Assembly: GCA_051652765.1 (NCBI GenBank)
Contig: JBOFUV010000034.1
Span: forward strand, 128,001 to 192,000
Length of the DNA stretch: 64,000 nucleotides
Reading direction: 5' to 3'
DNA from: Microcoleaceae cyanobacterium
GTDB lineage: Bacteria > Cyanobacteriota > Cyanobacteriia > Cyanobacteriales > Microcoleaceae
Part shown: positions 11,931-58,678 of the stretch, piece after piece
Position numbering within the stretch: the stretch's first letter is position 1
Layout: every line of letters starts with the position of its first letter
Translations under genes and position numbers: made by a program
The notes under the pieces: generated by a model
What the model was told of the DNA's origin: nothing
The model's database searches: none
What the model saw: the letters and a program-made list of their open reading frames with translations, nothing else

Positions 11931-12013
11931 GCATAACGTTCCTGGTCAGCGGCGGCTAATAACTTTGCATCCCCACTGAGATCTCAATACCGTCCGCACC
12001 AGGGTTGTTAGCC
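11931..12013 (-). other. attC site (83 bp)
   Basis: Minus strand GGCTAAC (contains the gene's TAA) ... GTTATGC; inner arms CCTGGT/ACCAGG and GCGGCGG/CCGTCCGC with extrahelical bases. Confidence 0.85.
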
Positions 12014-13253
12014 CGCCGCTTCAACACCTGCATTGAAACGATATTCAGCCAAAAGCCTCCGCAAATAGCGAAGTGCTAATAAGCACAGAGGAAAAACATA
12101 ATCATCAGGTGGCGTAAAGTTCCCATGCACAATTTTGTTTCTCCCGGTAATTATTTCACCACCACTAGACACATCAATAGGTATAATTTCTTGCTGCTCA
12201 AGCCACTGGAGTTTACGAGTCAGCCCATTAAAATCTCCTGGCTGCTTCTTTGCTCTAATTAACATCATGTTCACAATTGCTTCAATAGAAGGATACATAA
12301 CCCGTAGTGAATCTTGGCACTTGCCATCTTGGTAAAGCTTTATACTCGTTTCAATAGATTGTCGGTTTGCGTCATCAATTAACTCGTGTTTATTCACAAC
12401 CTCCAATACTTCGTCAAGCTCTGATGATGAACCTTTATAGGTATCACCGATTTCCTCTGATTCAATTAGTGATTTGGCAGCATCGCGCAGAGGATTATCT
12501 TCGGACAATATTCGTTCAACTACAACCTTACCTAGAGGCGTAAGCCTAATTTTCTCTGGATCATCTTCGTTCCGCTCTTTAAGAACACCTAGACGAAACA
12601 AAATGTCTTGCTGAGGCGGCATCAATTGTGGAATATTTTGACCACTAGGTTGTAGGTTAAACTCTTCTCTCAGTAAATCTAGATTTATGTGGCGGAAATC
12701 ATACCTGCTAGTGCTAAACAGAGAATCAACACCTAATAAAAAAGTAACAGCCTGTACAGGAGATAGCTCAAGAAACAGCCTTCCAAGTCCCGTAACATTC
12801 CAATGAGAATCTTGATAATCCCATGAAATTAACCAACGATCCTTAGCAAAGGTATATGCTTATTGTCTGTTCGTCACCGTTACGCTCCCATACCTCAACA
12901 AGTGCCGCTATTAAGTTTCCCTCAAAGTTGCGAGCCTGATAAATTGGTCTGTCTTCATCGGAGAGCCTAATATCAATACCTTCCGTGACAAGCTTGAAAA
13001 CAGTACTTTCATCTACTATTCCTATCTTTCTGAGATATACACCACATACTCGAACATACTCATCAAATAGCCCTTCATTGAACCATTCGAGCAAGGTGTA
13101 ATTATCACTATCAACTTCGCGTAACTTCTGAGCAGCATACTCTCGTAAGCGCTGAGTTAAAGCAGGTGCAACTGAACTATGCTCAATAATTGTGCCACCA
13201 CTCACTTGAATGTCAGCAATGATTTGCTTAATTGCGTCAATAAAACTCAGCAT
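12008..13253 (-). pseudogene. HEPN (DUF4145-like) domain protein split by one frameshift near 12860
   Basis: The frame of ORF 12008..12625 stays open upstream to 12859 and overlaps the end of ORF 12843..13253; span 1246 nt = 3n+1; C-terminal RNKIVH (Rx4H) motif. Confidence 0.7.
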
Positions 13254-13397
13254 TGATAAAAATTTTAGTCTTAAATTCAGAATCTACCTGCTATTCTAAT
13301 CGATCGCCCTGTTTACCATCTTATAAGTGACTTACGGCAACTTGGCATTGAGCACAAACAGATAACCTCGCGCTCATGTCCTCATCAACAATTTGAG

Positions 13398-13483
13398 GGC
13401 TAACGATTGAGTTGAGCCGCCGCAGATAACCTTTGGTTCCAACAGATAACCTCTCGGCGGTCGGCTCCAACGACTTGTTATAC
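13398..13483 (-). other. attC site (86 bp)
   Basis: Minus strand GTATAAC ... GTTAGCC; plus-strand arms GTTGAGCCGCCGC / CGGCGGTCGGCTCCAAC; 7 nt after the DUF5615 stop. Confidence 0.85.
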
Positions 13484-13490
13484 CGCCGTG

Positions 13491-13832
13491 TTAATCTCCA
13501 CTAATTTCCACTAACTTTTCACCAGAACGTAGTAGCTCTAGTGCTTCTGGTAAAACCGAATTCAAAATCTCTCGTAGCCGAGCATTTGACGTATTTCCGC
13601 AAGTCAACCAAATGATTTGCGGGGGTGCTCCCAATCGATCGACTAAATCCACGAAATCACTGTCTTTGGTCATGAAAATAACTCCTTGAGCTTGTGCAGC
13701 CTCAAAGATTTCCGGATCTTCGGCATCTCGCAACCCAAGATCACGTAAAGCTAGTGCTGTCACCCCAAATGTATCTGTAATCCAAGTTGCGATTGCGGGT
13801 GACAAGTGTGCATCAATCCAAATCGTTGTCAT
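13491..13832 (-). CDS. DUF5615 PIN-like toxin
   Basis: IWIDAHLSP, DAEDPEIF, MTKDSDF, IIWLTCGNTSN. Confidence 0.9.
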   Translation of the reverse strand: MTTIWIDAHLSPAIATWITDTFGVTALALRDLGLRDAEDPEIFEAAQAQGVIFMTKDSDFVDLVDRLGAPPQIIWLTCGNTSNARLREILNSVLPEALELLRSGEKLVEISGD

Positions 13833-14053
13833 GCAACTAAAACAGGATGATTGAGTTTACGTGAAGCGTAGACAAGTGCCGCTCTCAAATCATCCATTTC
13901 TAGATCGGGTAGTTCCTCTAAAATCTCTTCGGAACTTAGCCCTGCTGCGAACAAATCCAAAACATCAGACACTCGAATCCTCATACCACGAATACAGGGG
14001 CGACCACCACACTGTCTGGGATTTACTGTAATTCGTTCAAGTAGCTTTGACAT
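13829..14053 (-). CDS. DUF433 antitoxin
   Basis: RITVNPRQCGGRPCIRGMRIRVSDVL; GGAGG RBS; ATGA overlap with the toxin. Confidence 0.9.
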   Translation of the reverse strand: MSKLLERITVNPRQCGGRPCIRGMRIRVSDVLDLFAAGLSSEEILEELPDLEMDDLRAALVYASRKLNHPVLVA

Positions 14054-14080
14054 TTGAAGCAACCTCCATAAGATTAGCGT

Positions 14081-15133
14081 CTATCGAAAAGCACGTTCGT
14101 TCATCTCCTCGAAAAATAGCTCCTCGCTTTGAGTTGCCATTCGTAATGCTATGCGGTCTTGTAGAATTCTTGAATTAAAGTTTCTACGAACCTCTTCGTC
14201 AACACGATTGAGCAAAAATGGTATTTCGTGTCCAGCATGATTCATCTGACAGTCAGCCGTCATGATGCGAAGCATATTCTCTAGATGATCTTCATGTACT
14301 TCAAAACCAAACACTTTGTTTCTTGGCTTGAAAATACCCCTTAGAATGCGAGTAGCGTCGCCGTTCAGAAAGGAGGATAATGTTCCTCTAGAACTCTCGC
14401 CCTGATTTCTGTTAGGAACATTGCTATTTGACAGGTGATCGTGAAGCGTTTCTACGATGAAGAGTTCTCCTGTTCTCAAGGCACGGGCAAAGGTTGAAAA
14501 TACTACATTTGCCTTGATGTTTTTCATGACCCCAATGCATTGCTTACCACTGGAAAATAGGCTTTCATAAAGATCCACACCTTCCTGGGTAGCTACGAGC
14601 CACTCATACACCAGCGTCCCATCAAAAAATATGTAAGGTTCCTCAAGCTCTAAGCCGTGTCTGACCTCAAAGTATCTGAGATAAGCGGTTGAAGAAATAC
14701 CAAAGAGAGCCTGTTCTTGTCGAGCGATGAAATCATTGGTATCTCTAGAATCACCAAGATAGGCTCTACTAGACCAATAATGTAGTGAATCCTGTAGAGG
14801 GCGGCGGTGAGAGATACTCCCAATTCCTACGCACAAGGCTTGTCCTGATGAGTACATTTGCAAAGGAAGCGCAGGGGTGCCATCAACGGAAGCAACTTGC
14901 CCTTGCTCTAATTCCGGTGCATTACTAAACAACCCAAACTCAATCTGACGTAGCCTCGGTCTACCTCCCGACAGCGAACTTGATGACTCCATTGCTTCTC
15001 TTGCTTCGCGAGTGATTTGCCTTGCTTGCTCACTATCCAGCATTTCGACGACATCATCAGCTACGCCTCCAAAAGTTGTAGCAAATTCGTCGCGAGTGAT
15101 GCGTCTTGAGCGTCTGACTAACTCACTAAACAT
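14081..15133 (-). CDS. NurA-like nuclease (RNase H fold)
   Basis: VASVDGT, IFFDGTL, IGVMKN and C-terminal GHEIPFLLNRVDEEVR pattern of NurA-family proteins. Confidence 0.6.
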   Translation of the reverse strand: MFSELVRRSRRITRDEFATTFGGVADDVVEMLDSEQARQITREAREAMESSSSLSGGRPRLRQIEFGLFSNAPELEQGQVASVDGTPALPLQMYSSGQALCVGIGSISHRRPLQDSLHYWSSRAYLGDSRDTNDFIARQEQALFGISSTAYLRYFEVRHGLELEEPYIFFDGTLVYEWLVATQEGVDLYESLFSSGKQCIGVMKNIKANVVFSTFARALRTGELFIVETLHDHLSNSNVPNRNQGESSRGTLSSFLNGDATRILRGIFKPRNKVFGFEVHEDHLENMLRIMTADCQMNHAGHEIPFLLNRVDEEVRRNFNSRILQDRIALRMATQSEELFFEEMNERAFR

Positions 15134-15138
15134 AGTCT

Positions 15139-15644
15139 CTAGTTTCCCATTTTTTCAAATACATTAAGAACACAGGTATCCGATCTCATTCTACGATCGC
15201 GCTTTGCCATATTGTTTTTTGTCGCACTACCAGGCTCCTGTTGCCGACCGCGAGAAACATAGGTCGTGTCAAGCCAACTTAAGCCACAAGCGATCGCCAT
15301 CGAAGAAACATCTGACGGAACATCATGATTTGGGTTTTCGGGTCTAAGCCCACTCCACTTAGGTAAAAAGATGCATAGCCTCCCGCTAGGGTTCAAGGAT
15401 TCAGCTAATGCGGCTATTACTTCTTTCATTATAGAAAGATAGTTATCATAACTCTTAGCAGATGCTAGCTGATCATCAAATAAGTGACTAGACTGTCCGT
15501 AGTACGACGGATCGATAAAGATCCAATCAGCTTTAATTGGCAGAGGATTTCGCGCATCGTGCTTTTTAATAAAGCGACGACGGGGGTACAAATCAAACAA
15601 CTTGATTTTTAACTGAAAGTTAGAGTCTTTCTGCCAGCGATCGC
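15139..15644 (-). pseudogene. C-terminal part of an amino-DNA methyltransferase (N-terminus missing)
   Basis: HDARNP...DWIFIDPSYY (DPPY-like) and SLNPSGRLCIF; no ATG start and no SAM-binding motif I; the frame opens next to a HIP1 site at 15637-15644. Confidence 0.65.
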
Positions 15645-15728
15645 TCTCCTAAATGTTTCTGAGTCAAGTTTAGCATTCACTCCTAACCGATAACCTCGCT
15701 GGCACTGTCCTAGCCCAAAAACGAAGCT

Positions 15729-15815
15729 AGCTAACGATTGAGTTCACCCACTACTGATAGCTTTGGGACTAATCCAGTAATGCTATTGCAGGTCGGGTGC
15801 AGTGATTGGTTAGCT
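15729..15815 (-). other. attC site (87 bp)
   Basis: AGCTAAC ... GTTAGCT ends; inner arms CACCC/GGGTG; left arm GCTAACGATTGAGTT is shared with attC 13398. Confidence 0.75.
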
Positions 15816-15940
15816 CGACTTGGGCGAGCTGACTGTCTCTTGACTCAGCAAAACGACCAGCGCAGATGATGCAAACCCTCTCTCAACATAGTCAGTCGCC
15901 CTTCGGTTTAACTCCACAGGGAAGCTGTGGTTCGCTGGCA

Positions 15941-16046
15941 AGATAACGACCAAGATAAGCAGATTTTGAGAGCGGCGATTGCTTTTGGGAGGAAACTAAA
16001 ACTTGCAAATCCGCTCTCAAAATTCCGCTGCAACGACTTGTTATAC
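15941..16046 (-). other. attC site (106 bp)
   Basis: Minus strand GTATAAC ... GTTATCT with perfect 13-bp stem ATTTTGAGAGCGG/CCGCTCTCAAAAT; 4 nt after the ATPase stop. Confidence 0.85.
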
Positions 16047-16050
16047 GGCT

Positions 16051-17910
16051 TTACAGAGGAATTAGCTTACTCTCATCATTAAACTCAGCAAATATGTATT
16101 CATGAGCGCTTTCTGGAACGGTGTTATCAGACACAATAATTTGCAAACGATTCTGATACTCCTGACCAACTCGGATTATATAACTATAAATAGCTTCAAT
16201 ACGTTCACGATCCAATCCCTCATAGCCGATATTGCCAGATAGACCATCAATTAACAAGATATTGGGAAGTTGTAAGTCAAAATGAATGCAGGTTAGTTGG
16301 TGTGCTAAGGCATGGGCAGTATTAACCATCACCTTGAGACCTTGAGACTCCAATTCATCAAAACGTCTTCCCTCAAAGCGTGGTAAGTACGTTTTGCGAT
16401 CAATAATTGATGGTCCCGGATCTGAAAAAGATGGTACTCGAATTTCCCGTAAAATCGCTTGATAAGTGTTGTCCAGAAAAATCAGATAGCTCTCAAAATC
16501 TGAAACTCGGCTATTAGCTAGATCAATAGCCACATCTAACTCTTCAAGACGAGATTCAAGTTGTTCAATAGTGCTGATAGCCTGATCTTGCCGATTATAC
16601 AGTCCGAGATATTCTTCTAGACGCTGCTTCTGCTCCTGTAATTGGGTACGATGTTGTTCCACCTGTGCTATCTGCTCTGCTTGTTCGGAGACGTAGCGGT
16701 GAGTCCGGTGGTTTATCTCGGAGGATAAAGCTTGGCGTTGTGCATCCAATCGAGCGATTTCCTGTTCGATGCCAGTAGTTGCAGTTCGATGTGCATCAAC
16801 TAGTTCAAAAGTTTCAGTGATTTGTTGTTCTAAGCGATCTTGTTCCTTGATCAAATCATCTTGGGTTATTTGCGGTTCTGGTTGTTGCAAGCACAGATAA
16901 CATATTTCTGATTCAGTTCGGGATGGTTGAATAGAAGAGCCACAGCGTGGGCAAGAAAGGAAATCGAAATCAAGCAAATAGTTTCCTGCCACAATCGACT
17001 TGGTAAGTCTGGCACTTTGAGTCTGTAGTTGGGCAATGAGACTCTGTTTCTGTTCAAGGCTATATTGCTCATACTGAAGATTCTGATGAAATTCATCTAA
17101 TTGTCGCTGCACTACTAAGAGGCTGCTTCGTAACTCGTCCGTATTTGTATAACTTCTAATTTCCTGTCCTAGATTTTCCGAATCTGAATGTGCAGTTTCT
17201 AGTTCTCTAGTCACATTATTAAGATTATGGACAATAGCTGCTCGATTCTCAAAAGGTGTTCCAGTAAGAAATTCTTCAATTGTTTTAGTGTAATTCTGCA
17301 AACGCCGAATTTCACTGACTGTTTCACGGCGTTTCATCTGTAGCTGAGCTATTTCAACATCATATTTGCCATAAATAACTTCAAAGACGTACTTACGCTT
17401 GTTGTTTTTGTGAGGATTGGTATGTTCAAAAACGCTACTATCAATTTCATCTTGACGGAGATGGCAATACATCATGTAATCATTGATAGATAAAGGTGAT
17501 GTATCACTGTCATCTTGAGTTGGCGCTGTAGGAACTCTCAAAGTTGGCAGGTTGAGTTTTTCCAGCAACCACGTTCCGTAGGTCTCTTCATCGGACTTAC
17601 CACGCAAAGCTGGTAAACGTTTCGCCTCATTCTCACCAGCAATAGAAACCATTGCATCACTTGTCGTAACGAAAGGTCTGATAATCTCATATGCATTGTC
17701 GCCAATGAGAATCTCTCCAGCAAGATTGGTGATGTTCTCACGAGCTTCTCTTGAAAAATCTTTGAGCACTGAACCCAGCAACCCACGAAAGCACTTAATT
17801 AGGGTTGTCTTTCCAGTTGTGATCGAGCCAGTAATAACGTTTAATCCAGGTGCTAGAGAAAATTCACGCTCAATGCCCAACAAGTCGATTTTATTAATGT
17901 GGATTCTCAT
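16051..17910 (-). CDS. SMC/Rad50-like ABC ATPase (Lamassu LmuB / ABC-3C ATPase)
   Basis: Walker A GSITTGKTT, coiled coils, zinc-hook CPRCG...CYLC, signature-like ESQG, Walker B ILLIDG; ATG 17910 overlaps the upstream TGA. Confidence 0.8.
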   Translation of the reverse strand: MRIHINKIDLLGIEREFSLAPGLNVITGSITTGKTTLIKCFRGLLGSVLKDFSREARENITNLAGEILIGDNAYEIIRPFVTTSDAMVSIAGENEAKRLPALRGKSDEETYGTWLLEKLNLPTLRVPTAPTQDDSDTSPLSINDYMMYCHLRQDEIDSSVFEHTNPHKNNKRKYVFEVIYGKYDVEIAQLQMKRRETVSEIRRLQNYTKTIEEFLTGTPFENRAAIVHNLNNVTRELETAHSDSENLGQEIRSYTNTDELRSSLLVVQRQLDEFHQNLQYEQYSLEQKQSLIAQLQTQSARLTKSIVAGNYLLDFDFLSCPRCGSSIQPSRTESEICYLCLQQPEPQITQDDLIKEQDRLEQQITETFELVDAHRTATTGIEQEIARLDAQRQALSSEINHRTHRYVSEQAEQIAQVEQHRTQLQEQKQRLEEYLGLYNRQDQAISTIEQLESRLEELDVAIDLANSRVSDFESYLIFLDNTYQAILREIRVPSFSDPGPSIIDRKTYLPRFEGRRFDELESQGLKVMVNTAHALAHQLTCIHFDLQLPNILLIDGLSGNIGYEGLDRERIEAIYSYIIRVGQEYQNRLQIIVSDNTVPESAHEYIFAEFNDESKLIPL

Positions 17911-18425
17911 AACTTTTGGCCCCAAGAAGCACTAGTAACCTCAGGAAAATGCTGGTAAATGAAGTCCTTAAGCTTACTACCAGTAAGATTAAAATTCTGT
18001 TTCAATAGTTTGATACGCACGTTGGTTTCTGACCAGCTTTGTTCTTTCGACAGGGCTTTGGCAATCTGACTACCACGCTCTGTAGTGCGATAGCTCAGAC
18101 CTCTTTGATTCGGAACCGTTTCGACTAAACCTTTACCAATAAGTCTGCCAAGTATAGCGTAGTATGCGGGATCCCAAGGACCGTATCGATAACGAATCAT
18201 ACGCCCTTCAATATTTTGTTGCTCCTCAGCAGCTACTTCCATAACTTGATTCGATGAGCGAATGGCTAGAGCACGTTGCATAAAGCTAGGATAACGTAGC
18301 AGAAAATCAAGTTTGGCTAACTTAGTTCTGCCTTCTAGAGATTTAGTCGATGTAGTAAACGCATTAATAAGCAGCAGGATGCGTGCTTCGCTTTCGATGG
18401 AAGGTTGAAATAGTTCCTTACGCAA
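17907..18425 (-). CDS. ABC-three-component middle component (LmuC-like)
   Basis: KLAKLDFLLRYP, MIRYRYGPWD and winged-helix-like LIGKGLV; translationally coupled on both sides. Confidence 0.75.
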   Translation of the reverse strand: MRKELFQPSIESEARILLLINAFTTSTKSLEGRTKLAKLDFLLRYPSFMQRALAIRSSNQVMEVAAEEQQNIEGRMIRYRYGPWDPAYYAILGRLIGKGLVETVPNQRGLSYRTTERGSQIAKALSKEQSWSETNVRIKLLKQNFNLTGSKLKDFIYQHFPEVTSASWGQKL

Positions 18426-19569
18426 TTTTCACCCCCCAATCGATGCGACATTCATCAGAAATCCCGCAGACTGCACCAAGTAGCAGATAGGGATCTTGCT
18501 TATATACTCGATGAGGATCGACCGATTCTTTTTTTTGGGTTAGTTCATTAATTACAGCTCGCCAGATAATCTTGGCCGGTTTCTCTGACTCATCATGCTC
18601 TTCCACAATTGAATTTGTGAGTGTTTGAATTCGGATCTGCACATCTACAAATTTTTCTTCTTCCATGAAGAAGCCTGATGATAAAATTTCGGCTTCACGG
18701 ATAGAAGCATTTGCTCGTAGCTCTTTGGCATTTTTAATAATGCGTTCAGTAGCTCCGCCTGCTATGAGTTTCTTTTCTAGCTTAGTTGGGGTAGGTGCAT
18801 TGAGGTCAGTAATTCGCAACAGCAAGGGATAATCACCACTTATAAGGGAGCCAATGATATCAGTGATATTGTTGGCAGTAAGGCGTTTTGCATCTATCCT
18901 GGCTTTGGTTTCATCTTCAAGCTCTTCTACTTTTGCAATATAGTAGTATAAAAGATTATCCAAGCGATCGCAGGACATTGCTCGAAGAATTTCATCAGTA
19001 AGCTTTTCTTCGAGAGACTTAATTTCACGAATTGATGTGCTTGCTGAGACTTCCCCCATTAGGTGAATATTATGTGATGTAACGTGCGCTCTGGGAGGCT
19101 GGTTAGGATGAACAGTAACAGCTTCAAGAAAAGTGTTGCACTCAGAGTCTTCAATCTCAAGTTTTTTAGATATCTTCTGTACAAGCTCGTCTGACATACC
19201 GCGCTTAGAGTGAGTTAAGGCATTGAGATCATCCTTGGCAGATATTGCACCTTCGATAAAGAGGCTGTATTTAGCTACTAAAGAGGATGTTTCAGTAAAA
19301 GCCCGGTATAAACTTTTCAACCCGTCCATAGCAGCAGTCAATGTCCATTGACCCAGATCTGCATTCCGGGTTTTGACTTGAATAAAGTGCCAGTAATCAT
19401 CATATTCAACAACAATATCTTCAAAGTGCTCCATGATGACAGAGCGTACTTTTTCTTTGCGCGCACATGCTAGGCAGAAAGGCAAAGCAAGTTGTGCCTG
19501 ATAGCGAAACCGCTTCAGTGTATCGGTACCTGTATCATCGGGCGGTGTTTGATTGAGAGGATTTTTCAT
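18418..19569 (-). CDS. Cap4-like dsDNA endonuclease effector with ABC-3C C-terminal domain (LmuA-like)
   Basis: DTGTDTLKRFRYQ, EHFEDIVV, FIQVKT (PD-QxK); C-terminal GAVCGISDECRIDWG. Confidence 0.75.
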   Translation of the reverse strand: MKNPLNQTPPDDTGTDTLKRFRYQAQLALPFCLACARKEKVRSVIMEHFEDIVVEYDDYWHFIQVKTRNADLGQWTLTAAMDGLKSLYRAFTETSSLVAKYSLFIEGAISAKDDLNALTHSKRGMSDELVQKISKKLEIEDSECNTFLEAVTVHPNQPPRAHVTSHNIHLMGEVSASTSIREIKSLEEKLTDEILRAMSCDRLDNLLYYYIAKVEELEDETKARIDAKRLTANNITDIIGSLISGDYPLLLRITDLNAPTPTKLEKKLIAGGATERIIKNAKELRANASIREAEILSSGFFMEEEKFVDVQIRIQTLTNSIVEEHDESEKPAKIIWRAVINELTQKKESVDPHRVYKQDPYLLLGAVCGISDECRIDWGVKIA

Positions 19570-19736
19570 TGTGTGCTGCTATGGAAGCTTCGGACAAAGC
19601 TATATACTTCATTGATGGAATATCTATACCCATAATGTCAAGGAACAAATATCTGTACCACCATTAGCTTTCAATTTTTGCCTTTAAGCAGCGGAAATAG
19701 AAGCCTTACAGTAACTCCTTTATCAATGGGTGAGCC

Positions 19737-19794
19737 GTATAACTAGTTATTAGGTTGAAACCTTTAGTCTAATCACCCTATTTGAGTACGTTAG
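19737..19794 (-). other. attI site
   Basis: Minus strand CCTAA-TAACTA-GTTATAC, same CCTAA-N6-GTT geometry as class 1 attI1; lies between the first cassette and the divergent intI remnant. Confidence 0.8.
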
Positions 19795-19933
19795 GCTGAA
19801 ATTCGCAGTCTAATCCACCCAAAATAGTAGATTAGATAGAAACTTTCCGTATATTTCCGCAGGCCATCCAGATTTTTTCGGCTTAGCATCGATTTATGAA
19901 GCATTTAGACGGAAACTTTCCGTTTATCCCGCA

Positions 19934-20017
19934 ATGGAACAACGCCCCAAAAAGCCGTTGGAGCAGGTGCGCGATGTGATTCGGCTCAAACACTATGATG
20001 GAAGAAGCTATTTCTAG
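19934..20017 (+). pseudogene. intI: integron integrase 5' fragment
   Basis: MEQRPKKPLEQVRDVIRLKHY matches the IntI N-terminal pattern (LLDQVRxxIRxKHYS); similarity ends near 19996, stop at 20015-20017. Confidence 0.8.
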
Positions 20018-20062: not shown

Positions 20063-20310
20063 TTGATTGCTCATCGAACCTACATTGATCTCACACTTAG
20101 ATAAAGTTGATCGTAGAGCATTTGCCCGTTGATCTCATACCAAACCCGCATTGATCTCAGACTAAACCCGCATTGATCTCAGACTAAACCCGCGTTGATC
20201 TCAGACTAAACCCGCATTGATCTCAGACTAAACCCGCGTTGATCTCAGACTAAACCCGCATTGATCTCACACCAAACCCGCGTTGATCTCGCACCAAACC
20301 CACGTTGATC
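20063..20310. repeat. 22-bp tandem repeat, about 11 units (TTGATCTCAGACTAAACCCGCR)
   Basis: TTGAT recurs at exact 22-nt steps from 20063 to 20305; near-perfect 20129-20304, degenerate on the left. Confidence 0.95.
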
Positions 20311-51141: not shown

Positions 51142-51537
51142 TTATTCGTCGTCTTCCCGAGAAGACGTTTGATCCTTCCGAATGACCCACTCAAACATTG
51201 TTGCTGGGCGAGTTTGCTTGGGCGGATCAGCCTTGGATGGGGAAAGCTTAACTTCATGATCCACTCGAATAATTTGATCTCGAATAGACGCAACCCCAGA
51301 GGAACTGGGTGGGGCCAGAGGTTGATCGATGCTCCACCAGATTGCCAGGTAATATCCAGAAATACTTGCAATTAGACCCAATATAATGCTCAGTCCCAAA
51401 GGATACTGAACTAAAAAGAATCCGACTGTAAACAGAATACCAAGCAGTAGAGCAGCAGCAATCCCATCTGAACTGTTAGAATTGCTGGCTGAGGCACTCG
51501 AGGAAGGAGCTGATTTTTCATCAGAAGAGTCAGTCAT
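51142..51537 (-). CDS. hypothetical membrane protein
   Basis: 131 aa, ATG start, two TM segments. Confidence 0.6.
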   Translation of the reverse strand: MTDSSDEKSAPSSSASASNSNSSDGIAAALLLGILFTVGFFLVQYPLGLSIILGLIASISGYYLAIWWSIDQPLAPPSSSGVASIRDQIIRVDHEVKLSPSKADPPKQTRPATMFEWVIRKDQTSSREDDE

Positions 51538-51721: not shown

Positions 51722-51779
51722 CTAATCCGCTTTAGAGTGCATGTTAGACTGAAAATTTAAACCTAATAACTAGTTATGC
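51722..51779 (+). other. second attI site with no adjacent integrase
   Basis: 51744-51777 is 30/34 identical to the reverse complement of 19739-19772; core GTTATGC at 51773-51779; extra CTAA conserved 18 nt further upstream in both. Confidence 0.8.
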
Positions 51780-51895
51780 CGCCTTAAGGTATTGTGGGGC
51801 GTGGTTGAAAGCTTGCCTGTGGGTTGCGGGAAGCTCTTGCTTAGAACACATCTGAAAGTTATCTATAAGCTGCGTAGTTGCAGAGATGCTCAAGT

Positions 51896-52282
51896 TTAAT
51901 GGTCGATGTGCAGTTTTGTTGGCTCTGCATCATACAGTCCTGGAATAACCAGCCATAACCACATCCGACATTTGAATAAACGTAAAGACAAGAGTTCTTC
52001 TGGGAAATTTTGCTGACCGTGCCCTTGCCAATGTCCAAGATTAGCGAGTTGCTGTTTGCTACAAGGCGGACACAGATCCCCAGGATTGCCTTTGTCAGGG
52101 CTGTAGTTGGGGTCGCTTTCGTTGAGAGGGATAGGCTCAGGCAACCGCCCATGGTTCGAGTAGGGACAGGGGTTGCCGTTCAATTCTGCCGAGATCATCC
52201 CGGAGCAGATCAGAGTATCGGGGTAGATTTTGCCATCAGGTGAGAGAAAAAGGGCTTTTGGGGAAGTATTAACACCGCTCAT
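51896..52282 (-). CDS. Cys-rich hypothetical protein
   Basis: 128 aa from ATG 52282; LICSG, PCPYS, LCPPC and FKC motifs. Confidence 0.7.
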   Translation of the reverse strand: MSGVNTSPKALFLSPDGKIYPDTLICSGMISAELNGNPCPYSNHGRLPEPIPLNESDPNYSPDKGNPGDLCPPCSKQQLANLGHWQGHGQQNFPEELLSLRLFKCRMWLWLVIPGLYDAEPTKLHIDH

Positions 52283-52336
52283 TGAGAATACCGATAAGAG
52301 ATTTTGCGTCAGGAGTACGCCTGATCGCATATTAGT

Positions 52337-52365
52337 ATTTTGAACGCTTAGCGGACATTAGTCAA
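52337..52365 (-). promoter_or_regulatory. putative promoter with dyad operator in the spacer
   Basis: Minus strand TTGACT-17 nt-CAAAAT; imperfect dyad TGTCCGCT-A-AGCGTTCA at 52341-52357. Confidence 0.45.
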
Positions 52366-52372
52366 TAAAGGA

Positions 52373-52867
52373 TTATCGCTTTTCTGAAGGTGGCACTTGG
52401 AAGTCAGATTGTTTAGCGATGAGTTCTAGGAATTTTGTGGTGGAGCGATCGGGGTCATAAGCGCCGTTTTCCCATTCGCTGACAGTTTGCCGACGAACCC
52501 CTAATTCCTGGGCAAATTGAGCTTGGGTTAAACCCATATGTTTGCGAAGGGCTTGGATCGCGTCCTGTTTCCAGATGATTGCGCCGTCTTTTTGCTGGAT
52601 GTTGTACTGTGTCTGAAATTTCTGAAAGGTAACGGTCTGCTGGGTTAGATCAACGGACTCGACGTGATAGCCTGCGCCAATCCAAGCTCCGGCTTGTAGG
52701 GCGCTGGAACTATCTCGATTGCTCCACCAGTTTTTCTTGTTCAATGCTGAGGTGGGCAGCGAGCAACCCATCAATGCTTCAATTTCGGCAAAGGTCAGCA
52801 TAACTGCCTCCTGATTGCAGCGTTGCAAGTGCTCAAAAATTGGGTAATACTTGCTTCCAGGTTTCAT
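52373..52867 (-). CDS. XRE-family HTH regulator with additional N-terminal domain
   Basis: SKYYPIFEHL...LTFAEIE...WWSN N-terminal domain; LRKHMGLTQAQFAQELGVRRQTVSEWENG HTH. Confidence 0.85.
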   Translation of the reverse strand: MKPGSKYYPIFEHLQRCNQEAVMLTFAEIEALMGCSLPTSALNKKNWWSNRDSSSALQAGAWIGAGYHVESVDLTQQTVTFQKFQTQYNIQQKDGAIIWKQDAIQALRKHMGLTQAQFAQELGVRRQTVSEWENGAYDPDRSTTKFLELIAKQSDFQVPPSEKR

Positions 52868-53355
52868 GCTGTCTCGCCAACTGCCTGCAAGACCTCTGCA
52901 TAAAGCCGCGCATCAATCCAGAAACCAACTTGCTCAATTAAGACATCAAGTAGCGGTTTTACCTCTTGAATCAGGTTGTTTCGTTTGGCGGCAATCAGGA
53001 TACCTAAGACACCTGTGACTTGTAGCCCTACTCGCATTGCAGCCGCTCTACCCAGTCGTTCGTCCATGAGGAGGCGATCGGCGTTTAACTCGATAGCCAG
53101 GGCGATCGCCTCAGCTTCTCCGGGATCGAGTTCGGCTCTTAACGTGTTGACAAATGCTCGATCGGTCGCGGATTGCGTTTTCACCCAGCTTAAGGTTGGT
53201 ACAACCCTGGCACTGGCATCGGTATTGCCAACATTAGTGATTTCGTTGAAAACCTTTGTTGGAATCACAATTTCGTCGTAAAGTTGGCGGAGCAAATCGA
53301 GCTGACCAATGGTGGACAGGTAAAAGATAGGCGACGTATTACTGACCACAATCAT
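52864..53355 (-). CDS. DUF3368 PIN-domain toxin
   Basis: VVSNTSP, LDPGEAEAIALA, LMDERLGR, TGVLGIL. Confidence 0.9.
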   Translation of the reverse strand: MIVVSNTSPIFYLSTIGQLDLLRQLYDEIVIPTKVFNEITNVGNTDASARVVPTLSWVKTQSATDRAFVNTLRAELDPGEAEAIALAIELNADRLLMDERLGRAAAMRVGLQVTGVLGILIAAKRNNLIQEVKPLLDVLIEQVGFWIDARLYAEVLQAVGETA

Positions 53356-53597
53356 CGCCAATCGTTTGCCTCCAGGGTTCTTAGGTCTTGCCGGAAGTCT
53401 TCAACGCCATAATGGATGGGGATTTTACGACTACCTAAAATGCGCTGAAACTCCAGCTGATTCATCCCTGCAAACTGGCTAGCAGTGCCCAGAGTAATCT
53501 TTTCCTGCTGAAATAGCAGAATGGCAATTTCGAGCTTGAGATCGGCTTCAGTGATATGTGCCGTTTGCAGAAACTCATCGGGAATGATTAGACTCAT
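53352..53597 (-). CDS. UPF0175-family antitoxin
   Basis: LEIAILLFQQEKITLGTASQFAGM...EF; ATGA overlap with the toxin. Confidence 0.9.
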   Translation of the reverse strand: MSLIIPDEFLQTAHITEADLKLEIAILLFQQEKITLGTASQFAGMNQLEFQRILGSRKIPIHYGVEDFRQDLRTLEANDWR

Positions 53598-53612
53598 GGT
53601 TCAAAATCTCCT

Positions 53613-53975
53613 TTAAGTTTGTGGTTCATCAGGCAAGGGGGGAAGTATTGACTCTAGCTGAACCAGAAGAGGATCTAACTCTGAGTGGATAATTGTCCAC
53701 AGAATATCTTGCCTGACTTCATCGTAGCGATGGGCAACAATGTTGCGTAACCCGACAATGCGTTGCCAGTCGATATCTGGATGGGCCTGTCGAAATGCAT
53801 CGGTGATCCGGCGGGCAGCTTCGCCCAGAATTTCAAATTGTCGCTCAACGGCACTGATGGTGCGAATATCGTTGAGATATTCGTCAAAGTTTAGATCACT
53901 GGTAAACGCTTGAATCCGTTGAATAGACTGCACCATATCCCATACTGAGGCAACATCACGGTTGTTTGATTGCAT
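53613..53975 (-). CDS. DUF86/HepT-like HEPN ribonuclease toxin
   Basis: AVERQFEILGEAA, GLRNIVAHRY (Rx4HxY). Confidence 0.92.
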   Translation of the reverse strand: MQSNNRDVASVWDMVQSIQRIQAFTSDLNFDEYLNDIRTISAVERQFEILGEAARRITDAFRQAHPDIDWQRIVGLRNIVAHRYDEVRQDILWTIIHSELDPLLVQLESILPPLPDEPQT

Positions 53976-54288
53976 AGATAACCTGACAAGTATTCAAGAT
54001 TTCATATCGTCTGTAGGGGTTTTTTAGATATTCCTTACTCACTAGGTCAACTTTACGGTTAAATAATGCCTCAATCGCTGCTTGCATGTTTGTCCAATCA
54101 TCCCAGGTTAAACGGTGATCAGGCGAAAAAGTGACGAGAATATCAATATCGCTATCGAGGCGAAAGTCGTCGCGCAGGACGGAGCCGAATAGGGCAAATT
54201 CAATGATGTGCCAGCGTTGGCAAAACTCTGCAATCTGAGCGGGAGAGGCTTTAATTCTGTCACCCACCAAACTGGTTAACTCAACCAT
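53956..54288 (-). CDS. minimal nucleotidyltransferase antitoxin (MntA-like)
   Basis: LFGSVLRDDFRLDSDIDILV, RKVDLV; AGGAGG RBS before ATG 54288. Confidence 0.92.
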   Translation of the reverse strand: MVELTSLVGDRIKASPAQIAEFCQRWHIIEFALFGSVLRDDFRLDSDIDILVTFSPDHRLTWDDWTNMQAAIEALFNRKVDLVSKEYLKNPYRRYEILNTCQVIYAIKQP

Positions 54289-55720
54289 CACCAACCTCCT
54301 CACCTAAAATCATCCGCTCTACTCGCGCTTTTGCGGTGGCAACGACGGCTTCGGCTTGCGATCGCAACTGCTTCGCCTCAGAGCGTCGCTGCTGTACCTT
54401 CAACGCAATTTCATCCTGTATTGCCTTCGGTGGAGTAGCTATTTTCAGAGCAGAGATATCATCTGGATAAATTTCAGTTTGCCCTGTAGCTCCACGATAA
54501 CGTTGCCAGAATTGAGCCTGCCCAAGTGAAGAATTGAGAAACTCGGCAAGAAAATGTGGATTATGTTCGGGTTTAAGGCGAACTATGGAGACGTGACCAT
54601 CAACAACACAATCAAATTCTTCTTCAAAGACACTCGCACGTCCCCAAGAACCATCACCTGTTGAAGTAATAAGAATGTCACCTTTATATACTTTCGATTT
54701 TTTCCCAGATGTTGTTTCAAGAAAACTGGGATCAACTCTGAGAGCACTCCCAAAATTAATGTAACCTGATCCGACATTAACAGTCTTTAGGACAGGTATA
54801 GCTCCATCTGAATTATATTTGGGTTGACTTCCCCGCTTAGGTTTTTCTCGGCATAGACTACCTAAATTTAATACAGGATATTTACCTTCTTTAGTAGCAT
54901 TGATAACTGTAACGTAGCGTCTGTCATAGATCTTAAAATCCCATCTGTCCTCTAAATCTGAAACTTTCATTACAAATCTAGGCTCATCTTGAATTTTCCC
55001 AACTATCACTTCTAAGATTTTTTTTATTTCATCATCAATACCTTTGACTAAACCTTTAGCTTCCTCTAATTTTTTCTGCCGATCGCCATAAGCCTCCTGC
55101 ATCACCTGGGCAATCTGGTCTTGGAGCGATCGGGGAGGAACTGATATTAGAATATGACCAACTTCCTTTAAGTTCATTTCAGGTCGTGTTGTTCGATGCG
55201 ACAACCGAATAACCTGAAATTCACCAAATTGAGAGTTGAGAAATGCTGCAACATAATGAGGATTAACATCCTCTGGCAACTCAATTCCTGCAATATGTCC
55301 TGTAATGCTACCTTCTTCTAAAAAATCTGGAAAGACAGCAGCAGTTCCTACTCGTCCAGCAATGGTGATCAAAACATTGCCGGGAACTACTCGGCTTCGA
55401 TGCAGTTCTTGGTGCTTCTCTTCAGAAATATATTTAATGTCACTTGAATCAATACCTGTAGGCAAGACATCTTTAACCCGAATATAGGGAATCCCGCTAT
55501 CCTGATACATGTCAACTTTGCGATTGCTCCCAAAGGGTCCGTCGAATAAACGAGAAGCAACCTTCTTTAGGGGTTTCAAAGGATATGGAGCATTATGCAA
55601 AGCATCAAGTCGTTCTTGATATTCTGGCAGATAAAATTCAACAAAAATCTTTGACGTAGTTAGCTGACTACGTTTGACTAGAAAATGGGTGCGATCGCTT
55701 TGACTTGTATTTACAGCCAT
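54281..55720 (-). CDS. restriction-modification specificity (S) subunit with two TRDs
   Basis: GPFGS, IPYIRVKD, GNVLITIAG, PPRSLQDQIA; second TRD GDILITSTG, PPKAIQDEIA. Confidence 0.85.
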   Translation of the reverse strand: MAVNTSQSDRTHFLVKRSQLTTSKIFVEFYLPEYQERLDALHNAPYPLKPLKKVASRLFDGPFGSNRKVDMYQDSGIPYIRVKDVLPTGIDSSDIKYISEEKHQELHRSRVVPGNVLITIAGRVGTAAVFPDFLEEGSITGHIAGIELPEDVNPHYVAAFLNSQFGEFQVIRLSHRTTRPEMNLKEVGHILISVPPRSLQDQIAQVMQEAYGDRQKKLEEAKGLVKGIDDEIKKILEVIVGKIQDEPRFVMKVSDLEDRWDFKIYDRRYVTVINATKEGKYPVLNLGSLCREKPKRGSQPKYNSDGAIPVLKTVNVGSGYINFGSALRVDPSFLETTSGKKSKVYKGDILITSTGDGSWGRASVFEEEFDCVVDGHVSIVRLKPEHNPHFLAEFLNSSLGQAQFWQRYRGATGQTEIYPDDISALKIATPPKAIQDEIALKVQQRRSEAKQLRSQAEAVVATAKARVERMILGEEVGDG

Positions 55721-57747
55721 CCCAGTAACTCGTTAAATTTCATAATTGTCCAAGAAATATCAGGAGGGCAGTGTGATTCGTCTTCCGAAACATTTAATCG
55801 CCCGGTTGCGTCATACCCAATGCTGTCTATTCTTGCCATATAAACGTCATAGTCCTCGTCCTCAACAGCATCCTGACCAATTTCAAGCTGTTCTGGCGAT
55901 AACCGAATTTCTCGCTTTTGTAACACAAGGATGCTGGTTTTCACACCTGCTCCGTACGGTGCGAATGTCTCTTGAGGCAAACTAAGAACAGCTTTCAGTT
56001 TTGCCCAGCGAAAGATCCAATCTCGAACATCCTGAGTTTGGCTATTAGCTAAAACTCCATCCGGTAAAACAATAGCGAGCTTGCCACCAGGTTTTAAGAA
56101 TTCAAGGCAACGGTTCATAAAAACAATTTCTTGAGGCATTGTTTTGGCTGTCTTGCCATTCTTCCTTGTCACCCCATCTCTGCCTGCAAGATCTTTTAAG
56201 ATGCCTTCGCTCGTTACCTTTGAGCCAAACGGCGGATTCGTCAAAATCATCGTCAACCCACCCGGATAAAATCCTGGTCGATCCGGCAACCCCTCCATAA
56301 TGCCGCCCGTGATACTGCCCAACGGTTGCAGTGCATCGATCACCTTCAAGTCGGCATACTGCGCCCCATTCATCAGGCAATTTACCCGCGCCACATGCAT
56401 CACATTGCGGGAAATCTCCGCCCCAAACAGCCGATTTTCGCGGAACTCTAAAAACTCCTGTGTCGGTTCATCCGGGTTTGTCACCTCTACCCCTGCCGCT
56501 TCTGCCTGCTCCAGTTCTTGCTTTCGCACATAGTCCAGCACATGGGTCAACATCCGTGCCGAACCACACGCCGGATCACCAACAAAATCATGCACCGTCG
56601 GCTGCAAAATCCCCACCATCAGATTAATCACCGGAGTTGGCGTGAAATATTGCCCCAGGTCATCCCGAAAGGTTTTGCCCAGGAAATCCTCAAACACGCC
56701 CCCCTTCACATCCGCCGTAGACTTCCGCAAACTCCAGGGCTGCAAGCGTCTGACAATTTCAACGGTCGTATGGGGCTTAAACTCCAATGCATCCGATTCT
56801 GTAAACGCCAGCCGAATACCCAGATGATCGCCAAACTTTTCGCTGAGGGTGTCCCGCTCCCACTGTTTCGCCTTTTCAAACGTATCCCGCACCTGCACCA
56901 TCAAACGCTCTGGGTCAGTTTCCCCTTGCTTATAGCTGAACACATAGGATCGCATCTCCCCCGTAGCCTTCACCAAGTCGATCGTTGCCTGCTCGTCATA
57001 CCACTTGGCAAACAAAAACTTGACCATGGCATCCACCGCTTCCTGGGGTTGCAATCCCTCATTATCCCGCAGGAGCGAGTGACAGCCCGATCGCGTATCC
57101 CCCAACACTTCCCGAAACTTGTCACGGGTCAAGGGTTGCAATCCCGTCTGAATGCCATCCGGCTCACTGGGATTGAGGATCACCTTAAACGGGCTATGCT
57201 CCGCCGCCGATCGCGCACTCTCGTACTTCGGCAAATCCCCAATTTCCTGAAGCGCACGGGGATATTCCAAATCACGGCGATAAATTTTGGTATGCGTGCC
57301 ACTGGTCAGGATGGCATACCGAGCCGAGGGTGACGCACTCATGTAAGCATTGAGTCGATTCAAGTGTTCAATCCAGCCTTCCGGCTCCGTTCCCTCAAAC
57401 TTCTTTCCTGGCTCCATTGCCTCCACCATAATGAAGGCAACATCCAACCCACCCCCTGCCCCGATATAGCGGTCATCATAAACAATGACATCTACAAACC
57501 CTAAATACCGTCTTCCCCCCTGATGCGTCCCTTCAGAAAAATCGGCATCGTGCTCCAATCTCATAGCATCCAGTGGGACACCGTATTCTTTGTGCAGGAG
57601 GGCGATCGCCCAAATGGTTACTGGATCTTCTACTGGACGAACGTATGTATCATCTTTGAATAACTTGGACAGATTTGAGTGCTTCCGATAGTCCTCTGAA
57701 ACAGTGGTTGGGTTTTGGTAGGGGTTGGTGAAGTTGGTAAACGACAT
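55711..57747 (-). CDS. N6-adenine DNA methylase with N-terminal HsdR_N-like domain (type IIB/IIG-like R-M fusion)
   Basis: GQYFTP, DPACGS, NPPF, LKPGGKLAIVLPDG, GVKTSIL; N-terminal VDVIVY...IMVEAM. Confidence 0.85.
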   Translation of the reverse strand: MSFTNFTNPYQNPTTVSEDYRKHSNLSKLFKDDTYVRPVEDPVTIWAIALLHKEYGVPLDAMRLEHDADFSEGTHQGGRRYLGFVDVIVYDDRYIGAGGGLDVAFIMVEAMEPGKKFEGTEPEGWIEHLNRLNAYMSASPSARYAILTSGTHTKIYRRDLEYPRALQEIGDLPKYESARSAAEHSPFKVILNPSEPDGIQTGLQPLTRDKFREVLGDTRSGCHSLLRDNEGLQPQEAVDAMVKFLFAKWYDEQATIDLVKATGEMRSYVFSYKQGETDPERLMVQVRDTFEKAKQWERDTLSEKFGDHLGIRLAFTESDALEFKPHTTVEIVRRLQPWSLRKSTADVKGGVFEDFLGKTFRDDLGQYFTPTPVINLMVGILQPTVHDFVGDPACGSARMLTHVLDYVRKQELEQAEAAGVEVTNPDEPTQEFLEFRENRLFGAEISRNVMHVARVNCLMNGAQYADLKVIDALQPLGSITGGIMEGLPDRPGFYPGGLTMILTNPPFGSKVTSEGILKDLAGRDGVTRKNGKTAKTMPQEIVFMNRCLEFLKPGGKLAIVLPDGVLANSQTQDVRDWIFRWAKLKAVLSLPQETFAPYGAGVKTSILVLQKREIRLSPEQLEIGQDAVEDEDYDVYMARIDSIGYDATGRLNVSEDESHCPPDISWTIMKFNELLGWL

Positions 57748-57877
57748 TCAGTTGGCAAAAGTTAGAGATCAGTACACTTTACTCTCTATGATGCCTGAAG
57801 GTAGTTGAGTTGTCTTGCTTTAGAATTATTCATAGGTGTTGGGTCAGATCCAACTTGTTGGTCAGCCAAGCACGGCG

Positions 57878-57982
57878 GCATAACAAGTCGTTGCAACGGG
57901 ATTTTGAGAGCGGATTGGCAAATTCTGGTTGAGTCTCAAAGTTGTTGCCGCTCTCAAAATCCGCTGAACTTGGTCGTTATTG
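57878..57982 (+). other. attC site (105 bp)
   Basis: GCATAAC ... GTTATTG with 13-bp stem ATTTTGAGAGCGG/CCGCTCTCAAAAT; arms nearly identical to attC 15941-16046 in the opposite orientation. Confidence 0.85.
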
Positions 57983-58120
57983 GTCAGCAAGGGGAAACGA
58001 ACATTCGGGCGCTCAGCTCGATGTTGCATTCTACTGCTCTCTTCAGGGATTGAACAGTAATTAGTCATAATGAGAATTGCTGTGAATGCTCAGACATACT
58101 TCACCCTAACACTGACTAGA

Positions 58121-58678
58121 ATGCCCTCCCCTATAGGACATACCCTGGCTGGCCTGTGTGGCTTCATTTTGGTGCAGCCCACTATGTCTAGATCACAAAG
58201 AGTTCCCTTGTTGATCCTGACTACGGTCATTGCCAATCTTCCAGATATTGATATTCTTCTTGGATTAATTCTGGCTGGAGATCCATTTATCTATCATCGC
58301 CAGGGAACCCACAGTTTGATTGCAGCTCTATTGGTGGGGGGTCTAGTCGCTGGTCTCACCCAGGTTTTCAACCTCAAGTGGCCTAGGGTTGGAGTCTGGG
58401 TAACGGGGCTCTACCTGAGTCATTTGTTTCTGGATATGTTAGTCAGTGACCAATACCCACCCGCTGGTGTGCAAGGGTTTTGGCCTTTGTCTCAGTCCTA
58501 TTTGATTTTTCCAATCACCCTGTTTGGGGGACTACAATTCAGCGAGGGCGGAAGGGGATTACTGGGAGCGCTGTTTAACCCCAATAATCTACTCACCCTG
58601 ATGCGGGAAATTGTAATCCTGCTACCCGTCGTTTGGCTAACTTGGCAAGGCGTTCAGCGCAGTCAACAGAGACCTTAA
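58121..58678 (+). CDS. YdjM-like membrane metal-dependent hydrolase
   Basis: MPSPIGH, ANLPDID, HRQGTHS, SHLFLD. Confidence 0.85.
   Translation: MPSPIGHTLAGLCGFILVQPTMSRSQRVPLLILTTVIANLPDIDILLGLILAGDPFIYHRQGTHSLIAALLVGGLVAGLTQVFNLKWPRVGVWVTGLYLSHLFLDMLVSDQYPPAGVQGFWPLSQSYLIFPITLFGGLQFSEGGRGLLGALFNPNNLLTLMREIVILLPVVWLTWQGVQRSQQRP

Follow-up and report, generated by a model that had tools for sequence, protein, structure and literature searches.

Can a block of eight genes move as one integron gene cassette, and by what route would it come to lie at an attI site that has no integrase gene beside it? The question is raised by a locus in a stretch of 64,000 nucleotides from a Microcoleaceae cyanobacterium (assembly GCA_051652765.1, contig JBOFUV010000034.1, positions 128,001 to 192,000), where an attI recombination site is followed by eight genes and an attC site. 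The whole stretch is called the window below and all coordinates refer to it; the source genome, an assembly of 158 contigs, is called G000. What we find is an unusually large real cassette at an eroded attI, in a genome with many integron platforms and no detected integrase, and it is unlike the described integron cases in size and in the number of platforms.

The cassette and its borders

The gene cassette occupies 51774-57976 of the plus strand (6,203 bp), from the first TT after the attI to the G of the R' box of the attC. It is bordered on the left by the attI crossover G at 51773 and on the right by the R' G at 57976. The attC (57874-57982, plus strand) starts with the R'' box, whose 11-mer (57874-57884) is the exact complement of the cassette start; beyond these two places neither the 11-mer nor its complement occurs in the window. 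The 5' leader of the cassette (51774-51830, plus strand) is kept in orthologous cassettes, where it follows attC sites or plain chromosome. We consider it very likely that 51774-57976 is a true integron cassette, put at the attI by an integrase through attI x attC recombination; the borders are drawn by comparison, and we infer the reaction from the sequence.

To score the attC, we derived a covariance model from 23 attC sites of G000, the focal site being left out; a loose attC heuristic was too noisy and was used solely for seeding this model. The paired positions of the model covary, with 68 cells changed on both sides, and none of 500 shuffles was as high. The focal site matches over 57878-57982 with 50.5 bits (E 2e-9) and contains the R'', L'', L' and R' boxes. 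It folds as a hairpin, for which the bottom strand gives -20.1 kcal/mol (z -4.1), a value that none of 200 shuffles equalled. It is of a 105-bp subtype common to the 3,796-bp and 4,746-bp cassettes of G000. A scan against Rfam gave no match, and the island is not delimited by its GC content. A 9-bp direct repeat, possibly there by chance, flanks the focal attC (57858-57866 and 57980-57988).

With filters off, the same model, trained on G000 sites, found nothing above 11 bits between 51777 and 57878. G000 as a whole has at least 82 attC matches, 150 of its 1,103 candidates having been scored. Among 63 att-to-attC intervals (median 1,058 bp) no other is as long as the focal one, and the next in length are 4,746, 4,306 and 3,796 bp; some of these lengths are perhaps inflated by missed attC sites. 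A match of at least 10 bp between cassette start and R'' is seen in 12 of the 63 own pairs against 46 of 3,906 mismatched pairs, and a match of 11 bp in 15 of the 3,906 background pairs, one attI being registered one base off in these background counts. When the focal R'' is compared with 104 cassette starts of G000, three match over 11 bp, namely the focal start and two more, and nine over 10 bp. A first-pass annotation, made from the letters of the window, had described the 11-bp complement, the 6,203-bp unit and the lack of an attC within the block; the coordinates of the first two were confirmed and the third agrees with the model search.

Orthologous cassettes and the core operon

The attC model was run on 57 loci with homologs of the cassette's methyltransferase, and matches were found in five, all just upstream of the methyltransferase start and in the focal orientation; one of them is weak (E 0.087). 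Three duplicate loci among the later ortholog matches were counted once. In three loci the ortholog lies between two attC sites: L101 (JBDNCP010000196.1; 5,504 bp), L115 (JAAUTN010000331.1; 5,479 bp) and L183 (genome G553; 5,669 bp). None of these three cassettes has an internal attC, and in L115 an identical base change is present in the cassette start and in R''. In all six left ends that were aligned the homology begins at the crossover, whatever precedes it: attI in the focal copy, attC in three, and plain chromosome in L081 and L184. The right ends agree up to the attC and diverge after R'. That the block is one cassette bounded by GTT crossovers, as the first-pass annotation proposed, is thus borne out by the six left ends, the three orthologs between two attC sites and the co-variation in L115; borders lying off the crossovers in relatives, which it had named as the opposing case, were not found. 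Orthologous cassettes are alike up to R'' and the interiors of their attC sites differ, which suggests attC replacement. Damaged attC sites are seen in L117, L083, L120 and L184, and recognisable cassette ends are lost in L082, L084 and L181.

The core operon of methyltransferase, specificity (S), XRE and Cys-rich genes is common in Nostocales and Chloroflexota records without an attC match; in L030 it lies, without attC, beside a tRNA-like sequence. A Swt1-like HEPN gene (L030 9474-10355) is found between methyltransferase and S in this non-cassette form of the operon. In a methyltransferase tree of 47 rows, the seven rows with cassette ends form one clade together with L082 and L084, with a value of 100 in the Shimodaira-Hasegawa-like approximate likelihood ratio test (SH-aLRT); this was a quick, midpoint-rooted tree lacking a clade test, from which homologs aligned over fewer than 280 amino acids (L137 among them) were omitted. 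The simplest reading, which these data suggest, is one capture of an existing operon with its promoter: a four-gene operon (nuclease-like/methyltransferase fusion, S, XRE and Cys-rich) would have gained an attC, most likely once.

Toxin-antitoxin pairs would enter and leave this operon through a slot between S and XRE. The slot holds UPF0175-DUF3368 in L101, L115 and L183, MNT-HEPN in L181, L184 and L186, and both pairs in the focal cassette. Among sequencing runs, three matched at 5% of words, all of one study and none RNA among those listed; relatives' contigs from these runs skip the MNT-HEPN pair and hold no junction evidence. The operon is predicted to be transcribed back towards the attI. 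A putative promoter (57788-57816, minus strand) consists of two hexamers 17 bp apart, and this spacing is identical in 7 of 10 close homologs; since the operon has promoter-like hexamers of its own, its expression would not depend on the integron cassette promoter (Pc). A generic promoter scan gave 6 sites versus 8.6 in shuffles.

The focal attI and its flanks

The truncated platform at the focal site (51722-51773, plus strand) consists of the right arm of one palindromic repeat of 41-bp period and one complete 25-bp repeat, with no intI stub. The complete repeat (51743-51767) ends in the L box and is followed by a 5-bp spacer and the crossover G at 51773. Positions 51744-51777 have 4 mismatches in 34 to window 19739-19772 on the minus strand, which confirms the likeness of two inverted sites 32 kb apart that the first-pass annotation had pointed out, and the same 34-mer matches sites on two other contigs at 33 of 34 positions. 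Its name for the focal site, a 'second' attI, has to be corrected, as it is one of about 22. The absence of an intI remnant upstream was rightly noted: platform homology starts 54 bp before the end of GTT, and these 54 bp, one and a half 25-bp palindromes, make this the most eroded platform of G000. The most plausible view of the focal attI is that it is what erosion has left of a copied platform with intI stub, repeats and attI. In many genomes the L-box region is a perfect TATAAT-type hexamer, degenerate at the focal site; cassette promoter and attI core may overlap.

By its sequence features the site counts as an attI: intact platforms carry the motif upstream of an intI that points away from it, and the conserved stretch ends at GTT. 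A complete integron has intI beside attI, and the focal locus has no stub, nor was an intact intI detected in the assembly. [quoted passage not shown]

The left chromosomal flank gene (51142-51537, minus strand) and the right one, of the YdjM family (58070-58678, plus strand), are adjacent in the congener G002 (about 75% identical), with neither attI nor attC between them. The empty orthologous locus to which the first-pass annotation had looked exists in G002, which also lacks the attI there. The sequence after R' is unique and is not a known cassette start. No conspecific strains were found in two metagenome scans.

Dispersed platforms in G000 and across the order

A profile search, with a profile built from 16 of the sites, found 22 attI sites in G000. 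A 5' stub of intI is present at 17 of them, four have no stub and one lies at a contig start. Neither an intact intI nor a central IntI segment was found in G000 (TIGR02249, tblastn). Since the search of the assembly for an intact intI was negative, nothing could act in trans now, and the focal cassette would be frozen unless an outside integrase arrives.

Full platforms have 25-bp palindromes at 41-bp spacing, and truncation forms a series from long stubs through 21-codon stubs to platforms of 165, 143 and 54 bp without a stub. Twelve platforms have one common intI breakpoint at about codon 21, and no two of these have the same first cassette. One cassette is first at the attI on contig C146 and internal on contig C132, with 98.7% identity. 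Each platform lies beside different housekeeping genes, and no transposase or mobile element common to the platform upstreams was seen (2.6 kb, 25 sites). These data suggest that about 22 integron platforms were inserted at unrelated intergenic sites of G000, most of them now being reduced to an intI stub. The proposal of several scattered attI sites with operon-sized defence cassettes holds, with 22 sites and, besides the focal cassette, a Lamassu-like one of 3,796 bp and a type ISP restriction-modification (RM) one of 4,746 bp. Tandem repeats of 22 bp form a block at window 20140-20290 and in about 25 places of G000. In the 12 platforms this block adjoins the intI stub at the identical breakpoint; it also occurs without attI.

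None of the eight G002 platforms has a flank in common with any G000 platform, and the congener G001 has no attI or attC match. A reciprocal case is offered by G002:C127 (L033 5500-6800), an intI-less attI with one short cassette, for which G000:C124:1380-1800 is an empty intergenic region; only a weak right junction was found at this locus.

Of 301 genomes in the order, 72 contain the attI consensus pattern, 31 of them at least twice, and the reversed control gave two matches; G000 has the highest number of matches per genome (20). The first-pass annotation had looked to a wider search for both attI and intI: the motif did turn up in relatives, while an intact intI in G000 did not. In G064, in G070 and in G002 (whose intI has one stop), a full-length intI in divergent orientation has the motif immediately upstream, and the motif is therefore this group's attI. 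The intI of G070 is single, free of stops and accompanied by six attI-like sites, and that of G064 likewise by five. At 19 of 31 distinct attI sites in other genomes (one duplicate row dropped) no intI N-terminus lies within 700 bp. A same-strand attC follows downstream at 11 of 20 fetched attI loci. In another genome (G016:C1:4445000-4510000; L071-L073), tandem intI-attI-cassette units stand in one array, two of the intI genes being free of stops. Each unit is preceded by an attC and a shared leader, and a platform circle recombining with attC is possible, which we mention as a lead only. Sometimes a unit is also preceded by a fragment that we take to resemble a release factor gene at its 3' end.

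How the cassette came to lie at this attI

Genome-wide, an integrase acting in trans probably served the G000 platforms in the past. Action in trans on stub platforms after their truncation is suggested because 12 of them share a breakpoint yet differ in their first cassettes, unless gene conversion spread the truncation. At the focal site the cassette may have entered in trans, in cis before the loss of intI, or together with the attI. We regard as possible, and put forward tentatively, that the attI was already stand-alone and that an integrase in trans inserted the cassette, the genome working or having recently worked as one dispersed integron. The platforms with one breakpoint, the cassette shared by C146 and C132, the single stop-free intI genes with several attI-like sites in G070 and G064, and the many sites elsewhere with no intI start nearby all agree with this; the 54 bp moreover retain the core and one repeat, attI1 being about 65 bp (PMC4792948). 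It is weakened by the lack of an intact intI in G000 and the stop in that of G002, and at the focal site, where a single cassette is present, integration and intI loss are undated relative to each other. A complete integron with its own intI may once have stood here; if it acquired the cassette in cis and deletions later removed intI and most of the repeats, it would be an ordinary decayed integron. The graded series of truncations and the common integrase decay in Xanthomonas (10.1101/2025.06.18.660453) would fit such a history, which we nevertheless hold to be rather unlikely, as it requires many independent full integrons per genome and does not explain why one truncation is present in 12 copies whose arrays differ.

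Alternatively, attI, cassette and attC may have arrived as one block that came from a different platform or strain. Natural transformation, illegitimate recombination and recombination of attC with a chromosomal GWT are conceivable routes, and the site would then never have been a landing pad. The G002 locus has neither attI nor cassette, the sequence after R' resembles no known cassette start, and in L081 and L184 the cassette follows non-att chromosome, as in attG insertion (10.1101/2022.09.11.507474). The left end, however, is not at a platform GWT, and at about 75% identity G002 leaves room for an attI that preceded the cassette; we find arrival as a block somewhat doubtful. By chance, two att sites could also enclose an ordinary island of defence genes, or several cassettes whose attC sites have been lost. 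The extreme length of the interval would accord with this, as would the 52 of 57 loci with the operon and no attC match and the poor recombination of long cassettes (PMC5371416; 10.64898/2026.03.17.712381). The same two ends recur in three independent arrays, in one of them with a base that co-varies, and the focal and orthologous copies lack an internal attC; such a coincidence is very improbable, the end alignments having largely refuted it.

On a wider scale, a dispersed integron would be one in which a short attI module spreads without intI to many intergenic places, one integrase (resident or transient) loads the sites in trans, and self-promoted operons of 4-6 kb become cassettes by DNA-level capture; we offer this model with reserve. 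Several points count against our main reading of the locus, a true cassette from a captured operon at an eroded platform. The 11-bp complement is by itself moderate evidence, its chance here being about 2 in 100, and the recombination of the cassette is deduced from sequence. The attC model, trained on G000, may miss sites in other phyla, and the order from operon to cassette would rest on nesting in a midpoint-rooted tree. An intact intI could have been missed among the 158 contigs. The exact island junctions could not be aligned with G002 (scores of 22-28 versus shuffle maxima of 27-34). Dispersal of platforms by excision at GWT was considered and rejected, as the platform left ends are not at GWT. 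Finally, a lysine missing from the restriction motif makes defence by cleavage uncertain.

Cassette genes and predicted function

All eight genes lie on the minus strand, and the families named in the first-pass annotation (methyltransferase, S, MNT, HEPN, UPF0175, DUF3368, XRE and one without a family) were all recovered. PADLOC matches are to methyltransferase, specificity and the candidates PDC-S09 and PDC-S70. A defence role of the cassette genes is predicted from these families. The N6-adenine methyltransferase (55711-57747, 678 amino acids, NPPF motif) has an N-terminal restriction-endonuclease-like fold. Its best sequence match in PDB is RM.BsaXI (E 6e-22), over the methyltransferase part only. 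The model of the N-terminal domain, with a predicted local distance difference test (pLDDT) score of 78, resembles the nuclease domains of HsdR, BpuSI and DrdV with middling Z scores of 7.1-7.7 (below 8), and Foldseek gave no match for this domain at E <= 0.001. Residues E40, D86 and E109 of the nuclease-like domain are invariant in 21 aligned proteins, and the ExK lysine, two residues after E109, is replaced by Met or Leu in all 21; the nearly invariant K115 might substitute for it. The two target-recognition domains of the Type I-like S subunit (54281-55720) differ greatly from ortholog to ortholog (about 23-59% identity). The layout of this cargo, a nuclease-methyltransferase fusion with an S subunit, appears type IIB/IIG-like, cleavage being uncertain.

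The other two genes of the conserved core are those of a DUF7662 and XRE helix-turn-helix protein (52373-52867), a probable regulator, and of a Cys-rich protein of no known family (51896-52330; 129-144 amino acids by start choice), the last gene of the operon. The latter has no family match, its Atlas matches are at or under 0.80 and its model has a pLDDT of 45.7. The variable passengers are an MntA-like minimal nucleotidyltransferase (53956-54303; GS-x10-DxD; PADLOC candidate PDC-S09), a predicted HepT-like HEPN RNase (53613-53975; R-x4-H motif), a UPF0175 protein (53352-53597) and its partner, a DUF3368 (PIN-like) protein (52864-53355; PADLOC candidate PDC-S70). Compared with type VII toxin-antitoxin systems (MntA/HepT), the MNT and HEPN genes are adjacent, with Pfam families and motifs present and NCBIfam scores of 43 and 47.4 versus a cut-off of 60. 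Identity with MADS was rejected, since the scores are below the curated cut-offs (MAD2 269.7 versus 720 bits, MAD5 119.5 versus 400 bits).

The sister array and other large cassettes

The sister platform (19739-19996, minus strand), 32 kb from the focal site, contains an attI on the minus strand and repeats; its intI stub, of 21 codons, begins at plus-strand position 19934. Its array (11931-19741, minus strand) has four attC sites. The first cassette (3,796 bp, with an 11-bp start/R'' match) carries a Lamassu-like system with LmuA, LmuC and LmuB matches (16051-19569, minus strand). The 4,746-bp cassette (G000:C22:47713-52462; L034 3714-8462) contains a type ISP RM gene in two pieces, split by a DUF2281-PIN pair, and also carries Uma2. 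An interval of 4,306 bp (G000:C50:1611-5917) with a single open reading frame of 1,331 amino acids is a further candidate for a very large cassette. A gene-less cassette of about 210 bp (window 15733-15947) is found at more than 10 other places in G000 with 77-95% identity, twice as first cassette, and is possibly a promoter cassette.

Comparison with known systems

Earlier work has described integrons in cyanobacteria and an attC model, and integrase decay in Xanthomonas (10.1101/2025.06.18.660453, PMC8618304, PMC8352920, PMC8876359). Cassettes are described as short, with excision lower from 1.5 kb (PMC5371416), and a 4-kb cassette was not recovered (10.64898/2026.03.17.712381). In the open-access literature, supplements aside, we found no description of cyanobacteria with dispersed attI platforms or with cassettes of this size; the loci could appear in IntegronFinder tables. 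How cassettes are created is an open question (PMC4889954, PMC5371416). A cassette family of 5.5-6.2 kb, whose operon also occurs without attC and whose promoter is reverse-oriented, would fit DNA-level capture better than an mRNA route. The cassette and non-cassette forms of the operon would be pairs of ancestor and derivative and, if the dispersed-integron model is true, a before-and-after record of cassette genesis. With the attI consensus, which 72 of 301 genomes contain, integrase-less platforms can be searched for.

With regard to restriction enzymes, the focal protein is like Type IIB/IIG RM enzymes (BsaXI, BpuSI, DrdV) in having a nuclease-like domain fused to an N6 methyltransferase and a separate S; it differs in lacking the ExK lysine, and its operon has conserved XRE and Cys-rich partners. 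With CALIN and SALIN (PMC4889954; 10.1101/2022.09.11.507474, the latter describing SALIN, attG and GWT) the locus shares an attC without a neighbouring intI, and the focal cassette has attG-like insertions in L081 and L184. It differs from both in that its left border is a recognisable attI and not a chromosomal GWT. A tool ignorant of this attI would assign the locus to SALIN. In these studies attI sites outside classes 1-3 were not searchable and the clustering limit was 4 kb, which is below the size of the focal cassette, so that such a limit would miss cassettes of this kind. Many cyanobacterial 'single attC' assignments may, as our data suggest, be eroded or dispersed integrons.

Sedentary chromosomal integrons (10.1101/2024.07.02.601686; PMC5371416) are alike in the make-up of the attI core (an L box, a spacer of 5 bp and GTT), in the attC hairpin and the start/R'' complement, and in having toxin-antitoxin and restriction genes as cargo. 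However, defence systems carried by cassettes there 'never exceed 2 components' and median cassette coding sequences are 362-575 bp, whereas the focal cassette has 6.2 kb and eight genes; there is one platform there and about 22 here, with no intact intI found and a three-gene Lamassu-like cassette nearby. The integrons of Xanthomonas (10.1101/2025.06.18.660453) also have frequent integrase decay and carry restriction and other defence genes, and mobilisation in trans has been proposed for them. They occupy one ancestral locus, whereas here 0 of 8 platform positions are common to two congeners.

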